DNA from: Streptococcaceae bacterium
GTDB lineage: Bacteria; Bacillota; Bacilli; Lactobacillales; Streptococcaceae
NCBI GenBank assembly: GCA_031254295.1
Contig: JAIRUS010000046.1
Span: 2,973-66,972, forward strand
Direction: 5' to 3'
Length of the DNA: 64,000 bases
Shown here piece by piece: positions 5,375 through 40,428 of the stretch (positions are counted from its first letter, which is position 1; every line of letters starts with the position of its first letter). Made by a program: the position numbers and the translations under genes. The notes under the pieces are model-generated. The model saw only the letters and a program-made list of their open reading frames with translations, searched no databases and had not been told where the DNA came from.

Positions 5375-6180
5375 TGCATCTTAAAATGCTAGTCACCGAT
5401 ATGGACGGAACTTTCTTGCGAGAAGATAAAAGCTATGATGAGAAACGATTTGAAAAAATCTTAATAGAGTTAGAGAAACGAGGTATTATTTTTGTTGTCG
5501 CCAGTGGAAATCAAATTTTCCGCCTCAAAGAATACTTTCAGAACTTTTCAAACAGAATTATTTATATTGCAGAAAACGGAGCCCAAGTATGGATAGACAA
5601 TGAGATGCTTTTTTCAGAAAAACTGGCAAGAGAACTCGTGCTTAATGTAAGCTGCGCAATTCTAGAACACCCCAAAATGGAAGGGAGAAAAGTTCTTCTT
5701 TCTGGCGAAAAGGGAGCTTACCTCTTGAACTCTGCCGATGAAGCCTATAAGAAAAAAATGAGTCGTTTTTATCGACAAATAAACTATGTCGAGGATTTCT
5801 CAAAGGTAGATGACGAGATTGTCAAGATAACAATGAACCTCCAAAATGAAAACTTAGGTGAAGTTGAAAAGTTTTTGAATACAATTCAGGGAGTAAGAGC
5901 AACAACAAGTGGCTTCCAGTCAATAGATGTAATCAAATCTGGAATTTCGAAAGCTAGTAGAATAAAATTTTTGGAAGACTATTTCAAAATTTCCTCGAAA
6001 GAAATTGCAGCCTTTGGAGATAATCTGAATGATAAAGAAATGCTAATGAGAGTAGCCTACCCATTTGCGACAGAAAATGCCGTTAACGCCATAAAAGAAA
6101 TAGCCCGAGAAGTTACCCCCTCTTGTGAAGAACAAGGAGTCTTAACCAAAATTGAAGAACTCCTAAAAAGCAATATATAG
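5371..6180 (+). CDS. Cof-type HAD-IIB sugar-phosphate phosphatase
   Basis: DMDGTFL, ASGN, GISKA, FGDNLNDKEM. ATGA overlap with the upstream stop. Confidence 0.9.
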   Translation: MMHLKMLVTDMDGTFLREDKSYDEKRFEKILIELEKRGIIFVVASGNQIFRLKEYFQNFSNRIIYIAENGAQVWIDNEMLFSEKLARELVLNVSCAILEHPKMEGRKVLLSGEKGAYLLNSADEAYKKKMSRFYRQINYVEDFSKVDDEIVKITMNLQNENLGEVEKFLNTIQGVRATTSGFQSIDVIKSGISKASRIKFLEDYFKISSKEIAAFGDNLNDKEMLMRVAYPFATENAVNAIKEIAREVTPSCEEQGVLTKIEELLKSNI

Positions 6181-7221: not shown

Positions 7222-7250
7222 TTGACCCTCCCCCAAAAAAGTGATAAACT
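7222..7250 (+). promoter_or_regulatory. Sigma-A promoter of the riboswitch-deaminase transcript
   Basis: TTGACC-17 bp-TAAACT with TG extension. Confidence 0.75.
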
Positions 7251-7257
7251 AAGTCAA

Positions 7258-7324
7258 CTTATTTATACCCAGAATATGGCTGGGCGTCTCTACCTCGCAA
7301 CCAATGGAAATGCGGGACAATAAG
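7258..7324 (+). ncRNA. Purine riboswitch aptamer, guanine-type discriminator
   Basis: P1 CTTATT/AATAAG; P2 CCCAG/CTGGG with loop AATATGG; J2/3 GTCTCTAC; P3 CTCGCA/TGCGGG; C at 7318. Confidence 0.85.
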
Positions 7325-7475
7325 GTTGTTTTTTAACAGCTTTTTTGATAATCCAGTTCGCCCAAGCAGAAAACTAGGAAAAAAGATGACTTGGAACCTG
7401 CGCTTTGCGCAGAACCACAAGCTCCCTATTTTTCTACGTTTTCTATCATGCTAGGGCTAACTTTTTATGTAAAGT

Positions 7476-8984: not shown

Positions 8985-9102
8985 GATTATTCTCCTTTAT
9001 GAGATGTAAAATGTTTTTGACATCTTTAGTATAGTAAATTTTCACAAAAATCACAAGAAATCTGCCTAGTGCAAAAAAATAATAGCGTATGGATATTAAG
9101 TG

Positions 9103-9131
9103 TTGAAAGCGCTCTAATATCGTGCTATAAT
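9103..9131 (+). promoter_or_regulatory. Near-consensus sigma-A promoter of LXG locus A
   Basis: TTGAAA-17 bp-TATAAT with TG extension. The -35 overlaps a cre-like TGAAAGCGCT. Confidence 0.7.
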
Positions 9132-9160
9132 AGACCCATTAAATACTCAGGAGGATAGTG

Positions 9161-9433
9161 ATGGGAGTTACAAATATTAGCTCAGACACAGTTGCAGCAC
9201 AGGAAGCCATTGCCGAGCTGACAGGCATTGACGCATCGAGCTTTACGAACCAAACAGTAGACATTGGAGAGAGTAATATCACAGCGATGAAAACTGGCAG
9301 CCGTGTGAATAATCAACTCATGAATGACCTATCAGGCTTTGTGCAAGCATTTTTGACTCAGGCAAATAAATTTCCAGAGCTTGCAGCTCGAATCGAAGCC
9401 AATGACAGGCAAGATGCACAGGATTGGAGATAA
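9161..9433 (+). CDS. TIGR04197/DUF3130-like small T7SSb accessory protein
   Basis: ~90-aa helical protein ending QANKFPELAARIEAND, first gene of a small-small-LXG triad; paralog at 40153-40428. Confidence 0.8.
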   Translation: MGVTNISSDTVAAQEAIAELTGIDASSFTNQTVDIGESNITAMKTGSRVNNQLMNDLSGFVQAFLTQANKFPELAARIEANDRQDAQDWR

Positions 9434-9435
9434 AT

Positions 9436-9798
9436 ATGCCAAAAGATATAAGTGCTGATAAACGTTATGAAATGGGATTAACCATCAGCCAAAAAGAGAA
9501 TGATATTGATAGTCTTTATCAAGAAAAAAAGAATTTTGAGGAACAACTTCAAAGTTTTCAAGCGACTACGCATCAAAACTTTCAACGCTCCTCTTTGCTT
9601 TATGAAAAAATGGCAAGATCAGGGAATCGCTACTCAGAGCGAGAGCTCTCAGTCGAATACGAGATGGAGATAAATATAAATCAGACTCTGACGCAACAGA
9701 GTGAGGAGTTTGATAAATATTACAAAGAGACAAGAGGAAAACTAGAAGCAGACATTGAGAAACTGCACAAGGAGAGGAACGCACTCCCATGGGATTGA
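9436..9798 (+). CDS. LXG-associated helical accessory protein (Lap-type)
   Basis: 120-aa coiled protein ending LHKERNALPWD, overlapping the LXG gene start. Confidence 0.75.
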   Translation: MPKDISADKRYEMGLTISQKENDIDSLYQEKKNFEEQLQSFQATTHQNFQRSSLLYEKMARSGNRYSERELSVEYEMEININQTLTQQSEEFDKYYKETRGKLEADIEKLHKERNALPWD

Positions 9799-28380: not shown

Positions 28381-28457
28381 AAAAAGAAAAGCCATCTTAG
28401 GGGGGTGGCTTTTCTAGGAGTATTTATGAACAAGTCAACTAAGACTTGTAGGAATAT
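28381..28457 (-). ncRNA. csRNA-like small RNA, tandem copy 2
   Basis: TTGAAA-16-TATACT (28464-28469); hairpin ACAAGTC/GACTTGT; same core; terminator hairpin. Confidence 0.65.
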
Positions 28458-28626
28458 GATACTAGTATAGCGCTTGACCTCAAAATTTCAATAACAAAGT
28501 TTAAAAAATTGTATAATTTAGGCTAAATTTGGACTGGTTTTCAAAAAATGATATTTGATTTTCTGAAAATCAGACCAAATTTTTTCATAATTACTATTTG
28601 AAAAATAGATTTTATAATTTAGGAGA

Positions 28627-28702
28627 AAGTGAAAAGCCATCTGAGGAGATGACTTTTCTAGGAGTATTTATGAACAAGTCTACAAAGACTTGTAAGGAGT
28701 AT
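28627..28702 (-). ncRNA. csRNA-like small RNA, tandem copy 3
   Basis: TGaTATACT (28709-28714); hairpin ACAAGTC/GACTTGT; same core; terminator hairpin. Confidence 0.65.
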
Positions 28703-28833
28703 GAAAATAGTATATCATTTGTTTTAGAAAAATTCATTAACAAAGCTCACAAAGTTGTATTGAATTAGAGAAAAAATATAGCAGATGCTCTAAGGTTTCC
28801 TGTATTGGAGAAAAAAAGTAGTAGAATTATTCT

Positions 28834-32449: not shown

Positions 32450-33769
32450 TTAAATCTTTCGTCCGTCTTTGCTAAAGCCGTGCTTTAATCGCGTGCGTTG
32501 ATTTGCATGCGGTGTAAATTTTTCCAAAGTAGCGCCCATGATACCTGCAGCCGCAATACCTGCAACACCTAATGCCCAGATGCCACCTGCTAGCCAGCTC
32601 AAAGCGGCTCCGATTGCGACAATTAAAGGCCCAGCAGCTGCACCTAAATCTCCAAATAAACGGGTCGTAGCAAGGAATTGCGCGCGATATTCGTGAGGGG
32701 CCATATCGGCGGAAATAGTCATGATCATACCTGCCCCGATTGAGTTACCGAGCCCCATGACAAGAGAGACAAGCGCAATCGACCAGACCGAATGAGTAAA
32801 AGGAAGAAAAAGAATCGAAGCGCCCAGAATCAACATTGATGGAACAGCCACCCAAAGCCGGCCATAACGATCCATAATTTTACCAGCTGGGTAAAAGAGC
32901 ATCGCATCAAGTAGATTTGCTAGACCGTAGACATAGGAGATTGTTGAGGCATTGAGGCCGATATGGGCAGACCAGAGCGGGATTGCAGTGTTGGAAGTTT
33001 GACGGACAGCGCCAACTAAGATGATGGCAATCCCCAGACTGGCAAACATTTTTTTGTGCTTTTTCAGGATAAAGCTCGGCTTGACCTCGTGTTTTTCAAA
33101 TTTTACTTTGTCTGTATTTTCTTTGATTTCTGGAATGAGGTAAACAACGACTAGAGTAATAGCTGACAAGACTGCGGCAACCCAGTAAGCTCCAGCTAAC
33201 CAGTCCTTTGAGCCATGTAGCGAGTGAATGACAAAAAGTGACATCACAAAACCACCGATAAATGGCCCAATTAAAGAGCCGATTCTCTGCATGCCTCCGA
33301 GCATGGATAAAGACAGTGAACGCTTATATACAGGTGTCACTTCAGTCAGATAGGCTTGTCTGGCGAGCACAAAAAGTGAGTTAATCATACCTAGCAGGAA
33401 AGTTGCCAGCGCAAAAACCCACCAATTTGGACTAAAGGTACATAGAATCAGAAGCGATAAAGTTGCTACTGCTCCATAAAGCATGGCTTTACGGTCACCC
33501 AGACGAGTGGCTAAGATACCTGCAGGGATATCACCGACAACCTGCCCAATTCCTAGAAGTGCAACAATAAAAGCGGCGATACCAGCATTGGCGTGTAGCT
33601 GTAACGCCATCAATGGAATGACAGGAGTAATCGCACCGATTCCCGTTTCATATATCATAGTGGGGAGAAAAACGCTCGTAAATTGTTGAGCGAAACTTAA
33701 TTCGTTACTTTTGCTTTCGTTTTCGTTTTGATGAGGAGATTTTATCTTATTTTCTAAATTATTCTTCAT
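32450..33769 (-). CDS. MFS transporter
   Basis: About 12 TM; motif A GKIMDRYGR; start ATG 33769 with AGAAGG RBS. Confidence 0.9.
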   Translation of the reverse strand: MKNNLENKIKSPHQNENESKSNELSFAQQFTSVFLPTMIYETGIGAITPVIPLMALQLHANAGIAAFIVALLGIGQVVGDIPAGILATRLGDRKAMLYGAVATLSLLILCTFSPNWWVFALATFLLGMINSLFVLARQAYLTEVTPVYKRSLSLSMLGGMQRIGSLIGPFIGGFVMSLFVIHSLHGSKDWLAGAYWVAAVLSAITLVVVYLIPEIKENTDKVKFEKHEVKPSFILKKHKKMFASLGIAIILVGAVRQTSNTAIPLWSAHIGLNASTISYVYGLANLLDAMLFYPAGKIMDRYGRLWVAVPSMLILGASILFLPFTHSVWSIALVSLVMGLGNSIGAGMIMTISADMAPHEYRAQFLATTRLFGDLGAAAGPLIVAIGAALSWLAGGIWALGVAGIAAAGIMGATLEKFTPHANQRTRLKHGFSKDGRKI

Positions 33770-34057
33770 GACCTTCTGAACTTTCTGCTTTAAATTATAA
33801 CGTAAAATATTGCAAACGGCCATTTTGTAATATTTTATTAAAAGGAGCGCTAGAAAGTTTGTTGACCATTTACTCTAATGTGCTAAAGCATAAAGGTAAA
33901 TCACAGCGACTTTTGTTTGCTTGTTCTTGATTTATCAAGATCCGAGCATTTCGCCTTATAACAAAAAGTGAAGAGAAGCGTTTTGAAGCGTAGAAAGATG
34001 GGACTAAAAATAATGAAAGACCTAGCTTCTGTGCTTGTTTGGTTATATAGTGTTGTT

Positions 34058-34170
34058 AAAAAAGTAAAAAGCCCCAACGGGACTTTTTACTTTTAGGAGT
34101 AATTTATGAAAAAGTTTTTGAAGCTTTCGCTTCATTTTAGAGGTGTTTAGGAGTCACCTCTTAGGAGTAT
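34058..34170 (-). ncRNA. CiaR-dependent-type small RNA (csRNA)
   Basis: TTTCAG-5-TTTAAG-10-TATAAT promoter; three ACTCCT anti-SD tracts; TTTTTCATAAATTACTCCT core; terminator AAAGTCCC-GTT-GGGGCTTTTT. Confidence 0.8.
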
Positions 34171-34227
34171 AATTGTATTATAGAGTAGCTAACTTAAAGC
34201 AATCTGAAAGTTTATAAAATTAAAATT

Positions 34228-35730
34228 TTATTTTATGAGCCCTTGAGATTCAAGGTAAGTCTTGGCAACCGTTGCCGCATCTTTTTGCTCGACAGAGACT
34301 TCGTAGTTCATTTTCACCATCTGGCTGTCTGTGACTTTCCCAGCGAGTTCATTGAGGATAGATTCGAGCTTGGGATATTTTTTGAGAAGACTTGGCTTCA
34401 TGAGTGGAGCTGCTTGATAGGGAGGGAAGAGATGTTTGCTGTCTTTGAGGACAGTTAGTTTGTATTGTTGAATTTGACTATCGGTTGAATATACCTGCGC
34501 AACGTCAATCGCATTTGAAGTTAGGGCACTATAAATTAATGAGGTCTGCATGGTATTGACAGTGAGATTTAGACCATAAAGTTTTTGGAGGCCAAGGTAG
34601 CCATCATTGCGACTGGCAAATTCGAGGTCAAAACCTGCTCTAGCGCTACTTAGATTTTTCAAATCAGAGATATTTGTAAGATGATTTGTAGTCGCGTAGC
34701 TTGTTTTAACTGCCAGCGCATAGGTGTCTTGAAACTTCATCGGTTTCAGATAAGTCAAATCCTTTTGCTTTGCGATGTCTGTTTGAGCAGCTTTCCAAAC
34801 GGTCACAGGATCTGTTGAGCTTGTCGGATTTTTGATAAAGGTTGTGAGAATCGTCCCCGTATACTCAGGATAAATGTCAATCTTGTTTGCATTGAGCGCA
34901 CTATAACAAAAAGTTGTGTCGCCAAAGTTTGGCTTGAGATTAACCTTGATATCACTATTGGCCTCAATCAATTCTTTGTACATGTTGATAAGAATAGTTG
35001 GCTCAGTACCGAGTTTTCCGCCAATGGTAATATTTTTTTGAGAACTACTAGGACGATAAAAACTGCCAAGTAAAATCAGAAGTCCGATGAAAAAACTAAT
35101 AAGAATTGTACGGATACGGGCTTTTTCCAAGCGGTGTAAGATGAAGCTGAAAATCACGGCTAAGATGGCACTTGAGATTGCACCGATAAGAATTAAGTTG
35201 ACATCGTTTTGGTTGATGCCAAGCAAGATAAAGTTACCCAGTCCGCCTGCGCCTATCAAAGCTGCAAGAGTAGCTGTTCCGATAATCATGACAGTCGCCG
35301 TGCGAATGCCCGCCATGATAAAGGGCATCGCCAGAGCTAATTCATAAGTCATGAGACGTTCACGGCGGCTCATACCAAAGGCAACGGCGGCTTCGGTGAG
35401 GCTAGGGTCAATCTGTTGTAGGCCAGTATAAGAATTTTGCAAAATTGGAAAAATGGCATAGACAACCAGTGCGATGATGGCAGGGACAGAACCAATGCCG
35501 ACAAGAGGTATCAATAAACCTAGGAGTGCAAGTGAAGGGATTGTCTGGAAAATGCCTGTGATTTGGAGGCACCATTCAGCTACTCTGGGGAAACGTCTCA
35601 AAAGCAAGGCAATAGGCAAGGCGATTAAAATTGCAATAAAAAGTGAAATGAGTGAAATTTGAATATGCTCAAGTAAACTTTGCCAAAAATGCCCTTGCTG
35701 TGATTGCCAAGTTGAAATTAAAGCGTTCAT
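34228..35730 (-). CDS. Osmoprotectant (glycine betaine/choline) ABC permease-SBP fusion
   Basis: QTIPSLALLG, EAAVAFGMS, GGKLGTEP, YPEYTGT. Confidence 0.92.
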   Translation of the reverse strand: MNALISTWQSQQGHFWQSLLEHIQISLISLFIAILIALPIALLLRRFPRVAEWCLQITGIFQTIPSLALLGLLIPLVGIGSVPAIIALVVYAIFPILQNSYTGLQQIDPSLTEAAVAFGMSRRERLMTYELALAMPFIMAGIRTATVMIIGTATLAALIGAGGLGNFILLGINQNDVNLILIGAISSAILAVIFSFILHRLEKARIRTILISFFIGLLILLGSFYRPSSSQKNITIGGKLGTEPTILINMYKELIEANSDIKVNLKPNFGDTTFCYSALNANKIDIYPEYTGTILTTFIKNPTSSTDPVTVWKAAQTDIAKQKDLTYLKPMKFQDTYALAVKTSYATTNHLTNISDLKNLSSARAGFDLEFASRNDGYLGLQKLYGLNLTVNTMQTSLIYSALTSNAIDVAQVYSTDSQIQQYKLTVLKDSKHLFPPYQAAPLMKPSLLKKYPKLESILNELAGKVTDSQMVKMNYEVSVEQKDAATVAKTYLESQGLIK

Positions 35731-36655: not shown

Positions 36656-37186
36656 TTATATAGCGCCGTTGTTACTTTGAGCAATATTTATCATATTTTT
36701 CTCTTCGTGTTCCTGTAACAGAGCGTCGCCTTTTTCGAGGTGCTTGATAAAATCAGTCATTGCTTTTTCGAACTCTTCATAAGTTTTAAGATAATCAGCA
36801 AAATATTGCCCTTTCCATTCACTTTCGATGGTTGCATTCATTTCGGCTATTTTTTGGATTATATTCTCTAATTTTCTTTTCTCATCAAGATAGATTCTAT
36901 TATGATTTTCTGAGACTTGATTATTTAGCAGGTCTTGGAAGCTTAATTCTTCACTGTCTAAGAGACCCATTTGGAAGATATACGTAATGTCATCGGCGTT
37001 AAACAAGTAGAGTTGATCAGCATTTTGATAACCCTCTGGGAAAAGAACTCCAGCATAGTCAAATTCTTTTTGAGTTTCTACCGAAATTTGCTTACGCCCA
37101 ATTATCATCAGTCTCTTTTCACCACCATCTAATAATATGACACTACCGAGAGGTAAAAAGCCTGTTAAATTATTGTCATTATTCAT
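36656..37186 (-). CDS. DUF4176 protein with a C-terminal WXG100-like extension
   Basis: N-terminal LPLGSVILL...MIIGR...FDYAGVLFPEG...FNADDI (DUF4176); C-terminal helix-EWKG-helix. Confidence 0.8.
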   Translation of the reverse strand: MNNDNNLTGFLPLGSVILLDGGEKRLMIIGRKQISVETQKEFDYAGVLFPEGYQNADQLYLFNADDITYIFQMGLLDSEELSFQDLLNNQVSENHNRIYLDEKRKLENIIQKIAEMNATIESEWKGQYFADYLKTYEEFEKAMTDFIKHLEKGDALLQEHEEKNMINIAQSNNGAI

Positions 37187-40152: not shown

Positions 40153-40428
40153 CTACTCCCAACCTCTAGCATCGGCCTGATCGCGCTGTTCAATATGATA
40201 AGCCAACTCTGGGAATTTATTTGCTTGACCTAAAGTGGCAGAAACTAAATCAGAAACTGCAGTTAGCATTTGATTGGCTAGATTTTTTCCTGTTTCCATT
40301 CCTGATATTCCAGAGCTGTAGTTCAACTCAATATTCTGATTTTGAAAATTAGACGCATCAATTCCTGTTAGCTCGGCGATTGCCTCTTGAGCATCGACGG
40401 TATTTGATTGTATATTCCCTGACGACAT
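40153..40428 (-). CDS. TIGR04197/DUF3130-like small T7SSb accessory protein
   Basis: Paralog of 9161-9433 (AQEAIAELTGIDAS.F.NQ...QANKFPELA). Confidence 0.8.
   Translation of the reverse strand: MSSGNIQSNTVDAQEAIAELTGIDASNFQNQNIELNYSSGISGMETGKNLANQMLTAVSDLVSATLGQANKFPELAYHIEQRDQADARGWE

Follow-up and report, generated by a model that had tools for sequence, protein, structure and literature searches.

A csRNA-family small RNA gene behind a CiaR-type promoter in Lactovum, and the probable extension of the CiaRH-csRNA circuit beyond Streptococcus

We describe a small RNA gene in the genome of a bacterium of the family Streptococcaceae that the evidence supports as a well-formed, genuine-looking member of the csRNA family with a canonical CiaR-type promoter. 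Judging from its sequence and that of its host genome, the promoter is very probably activated by the genome's own CiaR orthologue, and the RNA would block ribosomes by pairing with the SD and start-codon regions of mRNAs. In pneumococcus, competence, autolysis and beta-lactam tolerance are connected through csRNAs with CiaRH, a system that senses the envelope, and to our knowledge these RNAs have so far been treated as a Streptococcus-specific device. The locus is ordinary in kind, and it is noteworthy only for extending the CiaRH-csRNA circuit to Lactovum and Lactococcus. It is intergenic and lies at 34058-34209 of the window, by which we mean the whole stretch of 64,000 nucleotides analysed; it is on the minus strand, since the motifs listed in the first-pass annotation of this DNA are the reverse complement of the forward strand. 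Its features and flanking genes are the following:

34228-35730, minus strand: upstream gene for a fused OpuAC/permease ABC protein, with its stop at 34228
34193-34209, minus strand: CiaR-type direct repeat TTTCAG-ATTGC-TTTAAG, with 1 mismatch to TTTAAG-N5-TTTAAG (TTTCAG 34209-34204; ATTGC 34203-34199; TTTAAG 34198-34193)
34192-34183, minus strand: 10-nt spacer between the second repeat and the -10
34177-34182, minus strand: -10 hexamer, a perfect TATAAT exactly 10 nt after the second repeat
34170 to 34058, minus strand: predicted csRNA of 113 nt, from the predicted +1 to the terminator's last U
34163-34168, minus strand: anti-SD tract 1, ACUCCU, single-stranded at the 5' end
34139-34161, minus strand: hairpin 1, in which AGAGGUG (34161-34155) pairs with CACCUCU (34145-34139)
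34154-34149, minus strand: anti-SD tract 2, ACUCCU, in the 9-nt loop of hairpin 1
34119-34134, minus strand: hairpin 2, UGAAGC-GAAA-GCUUCA, in which GAAGC (34133-34129) pairs with GCUUC (34124-34120)
34093-34114, minus strand: single-stranded anti-TIR core CUUUUUCAUAAAUUACUCCUAA, holding the anti-AUG CAU (34108-34106) and anti-SD tract 3, ACUCCU (34100-34095)
34058-34094, minus strand: Rho-independent terminator with a 16-bp stem (arms 34094-34079 and 34075-34060), a 3-nt loop and a U tail
32450-33823, minus strand: downstream gene for an MFS transporter, starting at or before 33823 and co-oriented with the csRNA

The direct repeat keeps both G's as well as the third T and the second A, and its repeat 1 reads TTTCAG rather than TTTAAG; the predicted +1 (34170) falls 7 nt past the -10. 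RNAfold predicts exactly three hairpins for the 113-nt RNA (hairpin 1, hairpin 2 and the terminator) at a dG of -36.5 kcal/mol, with a fold z of -6.9 and 0 of 200 shuffles equally stable, and leaves all three ACUCCU tracts and one CAU unpaired. The annotation had listed the hairpins AGAGGTG/CACCTCT and GAAGC/GCTTC plus a terminator, which are precisely those of this fold; its TTTCAG-ATTGC-TTTAAG repeat, 10-nt gap and TATAAT are all present at 34209-34177 on the minus strand, and its RNA unit of about 113 nt with three copies of ACTCCT is recovered in the predicted transcript, with the tracts at 34168-34163, 34154-34149 and 34100-34095. The box and -10 pattern, allowing up to two mismatches, is expected 0.04 times per window and was found twice, and three ACTCCT inside 113 nt (Poisson P ~4e-6) form the sole such cluster in the window on both strands. 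Together with the fold z-score, these promoter-pattern and cluster statistics exclude a chance assembly.

Some further features of the window may be recorded here. A terminator scanner flagged hairpin 2 as a terminator and missed the true one; this candidate was rejected, there being 6 nt between that hairpin and the U run. There is no terminator between the OpuAC-permease stop and the csRNA promoter (34228-34209, minus strand), and operon read-through would therefore stop at the csRNA terminator; such read-through of the OpuAC-permease gene could also yield the csRNA as a 3'-derived fragment. A purine riboswitch aptamer (RF00167) at 7239-7340 on the plus strand scores 54.9 bits, above the gathering score. 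Adjoining the opuA-like operon, at 36656-37186 on the minus strand, is a gene for a 176-aa protein with a DUF4176 and a WXG100-like region, which points to a putative type VII secretion or LXG-type locus.

The csRNA family was delineated by Marx et al. (2010), who predicted 61 genes in 14 streptococcal genomes from a TTTAAG-N5-TTTAAG repeat in which the G's are kept and neither half deviates at more than one position, a -10 (TATAAT, at most two mismatches) after N10, a place between genes and a terminator no more than 250 nt away; they describe the first A of the repeat as slightly variable, and noted unpaired anti-SD/anti-AUG sequence in all 61 (PMC3091779). The likeness to CiaR direct-repeat geometry and csRNA layout claimed in the first-pass annotation holds on every one of these points. 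The single mismatch of TTTCAG-ATTGC-TTTAAG falls on the tolerated first A of repeat 1, a perfect TATAAT follows after a 10-nt spacer, the gene lies between the OpuAC-permease and MFS genes with its terminator ending 113 nt after the +1, and CAU and ACUCCU share an unpaired tract, with two more unpaired ACUCCU elsewhere in the RNA.

The comparison with the Rfam csRNA model that had been suggested as a check fell short of its threshold. No csRNA was found at the Rfam gathering threshold in the window scan, and in a permissive scan RF02379 scored the element at 24.1 bits (E 0.79 within a region of 601 nt), the gathering score being 57; the alignment takes in the full model (positions 1-93) and has hairpin 1, the UUUUUCAUAA..CUCCUAA tract and the terminator in their proper order. 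Even the best csRNA copy in this genome reaches only 36 bits by RF02379. With the score below gathering, csRNA membership was therefore tested by other routes. We used a covariance model, R1, made from six other copies (two of this genome and four of same-genus genomes) with the flagged element left out, which covers the 5' hairpin and anti-TIR tract only, because the hairpins and terminators vary too much to be aligned with MAFFT. R1 scores the flagged element at 44.7 bits (E 1.2e-6 over the window), the top match with filters off. Counted on an alignment fitted to R1's own structure, the 5' hairpin is 96.6% paired over 16 distinct copies, with changes on both sides in 7 of its 8 pairs; this covariation is reached by 0 of 500 shuffles, with slid controls at 28-48%. 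The single-stranded core CUUUUUCAUAAAU(U/A)ACUCCUAA is invariant in 12 copies, whereas stems and terminators vary.

A search for ciaRH in the genome, likewise proposed with the original annotation, recovered a CiaR/CiaH pair on contig C93. Among the five OmpR-type regulators encoded, the CiaR candidate (9051-9719 of that contig, minus strand) is 76.6% identical to the CiaR of S. salivarius, to which the remaining four are at most 37.5% identical; it is also 77% identical to a Lactococcus garvieae protein annotated as CiaR, and 90-91% identical to proteins of Lactovum miscens and L. odontotermitis. Its recognition helix, VVEVYMSKIRKKL, differs by one V-to-M substitution from the VVEVYVSK(V/I)RKKL of streptococci. 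The kinase gene next to ciaR overlaps its stop and encodes a kinase of 447 aa with HisKA and HATPase_c domains; this kinase is 66% identical to the L. miscens kinase, 46-49% to those of Lactococcus, Pseudolactococcus and Floricoccus, and 41-43% to Streptococcus kinases over 94-97% of the length; several sources give its homologues the name CiaH, for which identities of 47-86% are reported among streptococci (PMC3091779). The neighbourhood of the pair (GH65 - HAD - LacI - RR - HK - DXP synthase, dxs) is the same in Lactococcus cremoris and L. garvieae.

Outside the csRNA genes, a CiaR box (TTTAAG-CTATT-ATTAAG-N10-TAAAAT) precedes the gene for an HtrA protease (Trypsin_2+PDZ) on contig C52, correctly spaced boxes also stand before a malP-like carbohydrate phosphorylase gene and an Spx/ArsC-family gene, and ciaR itself is preceded by a weak half-box (TTTAAG-TTTCA-GGAAAG-N10-TAAAAT), a candidate site for autoregulation. 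In pneumococcus, htrA and malP are reportedly CiaR targets, according to the work of Halfmann in 2007. Control of HtrA by CiaR is also described elsewhere (PMC6560143). With a CiaR orthologue of conserved helix, an adjacent kinase and a box-driven htrA all in place, sequence comparison supports the presence of a syntenic CiaR/CiaH pair and of a CiaRH-csRNA regulon in this genome; the regulon had been inferred in the first-pass annotation, and the orthologous ciaR and ciaH, the boxes at htrA and the malP-like gene, and four more csRNA-like genes bear that inference out. CiaR-box promoters at C52:9546 and C153:1293 (both on the minus strand) were also seen before very short ORFs, which encode two peptides, one hydrophobic and 42 aa long, the other of 41 aa and signal-like at its N-terminus.

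The genome (2.12 Mb in 181 contigs) holds at least four further csRNA-like genes:

C143:11493, minus strand: sibling with hairpin 2, core and terminator loop in common with the flagged RNA
C34:5632, plus strand: sibling of the same build
C83, ~5749-5870, minus strand: sibling with a degenerate box, scoring 79.6 bits with R1
box 40613-40597 and RNA ~40574-40516, minus strand: minimal sibling of ~59 nt, with TTTAAG-TTCTT-TCTAAG-N10-TATAAT

Hairpin 2 of the 113-nt RNA is common only to the paralogue on C143. The promoter of the C83 copy lacks a well-formed and correctly spaced CiaR repeat (TCTAAAGTCTTAGAAAGG ... TATACT), and its upstream motif 'TCAGTCTAAAGT' recurs in same-genus genomes, there with a good box. 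The minimal RNA comprises little beyond UUCAUAAAUUCUCC and a terminator; some 85 nt downstream of it a gene in the same orientation begins at 40428. Weak csRNA-like tandem matches at 28411-28465 and 28655-28696 (minus strand) score 17 and 15 bits with R1; an Rfam csRNA match of 22 bits falls at about 28630-28703 on the same strand, and the core of this 28.4-28.7 kb region reads UUCAUAAAU-ACUCCUAGAAA. The CiaR box scan picked up none at the two tandem matches.

Marx et al. (2010) state that CiaRH is absent from Lactococcus and other non-streptococcal genera (PMC3091779). Full-text literature searches turned up neither csRNAs nor CiaR boxes reported for any genus but Streptococcus, and a lactococcal sRNA study is silent on both. 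By its sequence relationships the present host is a species of Lactovum and not of Streptococcus, its CiaR being 90-91% identical to Lactovum proteins, so that the CiaRH-csRNA circuit would not be confined to Streptococcus. Box-driven csRNAs occur in all five other Lactovum genomes, and each Lactovum genome has 3-5 csRNA genes. In Lactococcus taiwanensis, L. nasutitermitis and L. fujiensis, TTTAAG-TTTCA-TTTCAG-N10-TATAAT drives AUACUCCUAAAUAAACUUUUUCAUAAAUUACUCCUAA and a terminator, and a second csRNA type in these three species begins with UUAUUCCAAU; four further genomes of the genus Lactococcus (code g9) have the same box and a short csRNA. This Lactococcus csRNA of ~60 nt, with its near-perfect CiaR box, is almost invariant in at least seven genomes (L099/L100/L101, L125-L129), and we found no published description of it. 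One genome of another genus (code g10) also has a box-driven csRNA.

A survey of the family with the covariance model gave matches in 13 of 201 genomes and 5 of 11 genus codes, the five including one false positive (g5) and one without a recognisable box (g8); the count is an underestimate, because the model was tuned to Lactovum copies and the filters were strict. The box-driven copies in relatives were checked by eye. Matches to CTTTTTCATA....CTCCTAA at loci L077-L080, L088-L091 and L130 proved to be ordinary 'MKK' gene starts on the opposite strand, and were discarded because they have neither box nor terminator. The g8 genome, G012, carries four nearly identical csRNA-like units (L124, L136, L141 and L142), each with two 5' hairpins, the core ACUUUUUCAUUAACUCCUAAA and a terminator, two of them 375 nt apart on one contig; no CiaR box was recognisable at any of the four. 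The presence of CiaRH and csRNAs in Lactovum and Lactococcus contradicts the 2010 statement of CiaRH absence outside streptococci, and we consider it likely that the circuit goes back to the ancestor of the family Streptococcaceae and did not originate within Streptococcus.

The locus itself has a counterpart in Lactovum miscens, where an MFS gene 79% identical to that of the window is immediately preceded by an RNA of 121 nt that is box-driven, folds into three hairpins and carries three anti-SD tracts; from this arrangement we take that RNA as a positional orthologue of the flagged csRNA. Synteny was also sought by way of the upstream OpuAC gene, and no csRNA was found after OpuAC in the Lactovum or Lactococcus relatives.

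As to function, the anti-TIR model has been proposed for all csRNAs (PMC3091779), and it is reported to have been demonstrated for comC in pneumococcus, whose csRNAs repress comC translation additively (PMC6560143). In the mechanism we propose, phosphorylated CiaR would activate the promoter when CiaRH is active in response to the state of the cell envelope, and the RNA would accumulate. The csRNA would then pair with the SD and start-codon regions of mRNAs, mainly those of transporters, and ribosome access would be blocked and translation lowered, additively with the at least four sibling csRNAs. Read as mRNA, the third tract gives AGGAGU-AAUUU-AUG-AAAAAG, with a natural SD-AUG spacing. At -14 kcal/mol or better, 167 of 2814 crude TIRs pair with the 30-nt linker that holds the anti-TIR tract, as against 1-24 for each of five shuffled tracts. 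Solute-binding lipoproteins and permeases stand out among the best predicted targets, which include an oligopeptide-type SBP (SBP_bac_5) at -22.8 kcal/mol, an SBP_bac_3-permease fusion, an amino-acid permease, an ABC ATPase, an alpha-amylase lipoprotein and a sugar ABC permease; as predictions they are generic, since a good many gene starts will fit any anti-SD/anti-AUG sequence. The two extra anti-SD tracts, at the 5' end and in loop 1, may, speculatively, be added pairing sites or serve in the binding of two mRNAs.

Other readings of the locus have to be weighed against that of a CiaR-activated, trans-acting csRNA. The unit could be a cis-acting leader or attenuator, in which the CiaR-type promoter serves the downstream MFS gene and the hairpin is a regulated terminator. 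The csRNA unit is indeed co-oriented with the MFS gene, their adjacency is kept in L. miscens with a gap of only ~45 nt between terminator and MFS start, and no convincing sigma-70 promoter was found in this genome's 235-nt gap. Against it, the L. miscens gap has an extended -10 (TGATATAAT) for the MFS gene, the 16-bp terminator stem with its U tail has no evident alternative antiterminator pairing, paralogues with the same core sit in unrelated contexts, and the conserved part is the anti-TIR tract typical of trans-acting csRNAs; we regard a leader as improbable. To much the same degree we doubt that a genuine csRNA-family RNA is here transcribed from a constitutive promoter or under an OmpR-family regulator other than the CiaR orthologue. 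The recognition helix is one residue off all streptococcal CiaRs, and boxes are degenerate or absent at the C83 copy, the G012 copies and the tandem copies at 28.4-28.7 kb; against this stand a box in which every invariant position of the CiaR consensus is kept and the N5 and N10 spacings are exact, the same box before htrA, a hallmark CiaR target, and the dissimilarity of all four other OmpR-type regulators to CiaR.

Still less credible is a small protein gene. A 30-codon frame does open from an ATG at 34134 (MKRKLQKLFHKLLLKVKSPVGAFYFFNNTI), but this ATG has no SD before it and is missing in both the C143 paralogue (CTGAAG) and the L. miscens orthologue, and the frame crosses the terminator hairpin. 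We give as little weight to the notion that the motifs came together by chance or that the locus is a silent remnant in decay, against which stand the low expectations given above for the promoter pattern (0.04 per window) and the ACTCCT cluster (~4e-6), the fold z of -6.9, the perfect -10 and intact terminator, the conserved position and the covarying stems. The trans-acting csRNA under the genome's own CiaR remains by far the reading we favour.

Taken with the syntenic ciaRH and the CiaR-box htrA, the csRNA genes of Lactovum and Lactococcus would date the circuit before the split of these genera, across which the anti-RBS core of the csRNAs is almost unchanged. The target predictions point to peptide, amino-acid and sugar uptake as what the circuit may originally have controlled, and L. 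miscens and the lactococci suggest themselves as harmless and tractable hosts for studying its original targets. If the circuit is ancestral, csRNA biology would be opened to non-pathogenic, genetically tractable lactic acid bacteria. The Rfam csRNA model, in turn, is too narrow for annotating these genomes.

Set beside the known csRNAs (ccnA-E of S. pneumoniae; RF02379), the flagged RNA likewise has a CiaR direct repeat 10 nt before the -10, and shares with them a 5' anti-SD hairpin, an unpaired CUUUUUCAUAA..CUCCUAA anti-AUG/anti-SD tract and a terminator. Its 113 nt fall inside the published size range of 51-202 nt for Streptococcus, and the at least five csRNA genes of this genome compare with 2-6 in streptococci. 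It differs from them in its host, Lactovum instead of Streptococcus, in its score under the Rfam gathering threshold, and in its three anti-SD tracts and extra GNRA-loop hairpin, the latter common only to one paralogue. The short csRNAs of the three named Lactococcus species have a core identical to that of the flagged RNA and the same kind of CiaR box, but, unlike it, are only ~60 nt long and lack the 5' hairpin. The CiaRH system itself departs from that of Streptococcus in a kinase of only 41-43% identity, in the V-to-M change of the helix and in a locus context that is as in Lactococcus, yet it matches it in a regulator 77% identical with a near-identical helix, in the adjacent kinase and in the boxes at htrA and the malP-like gene.
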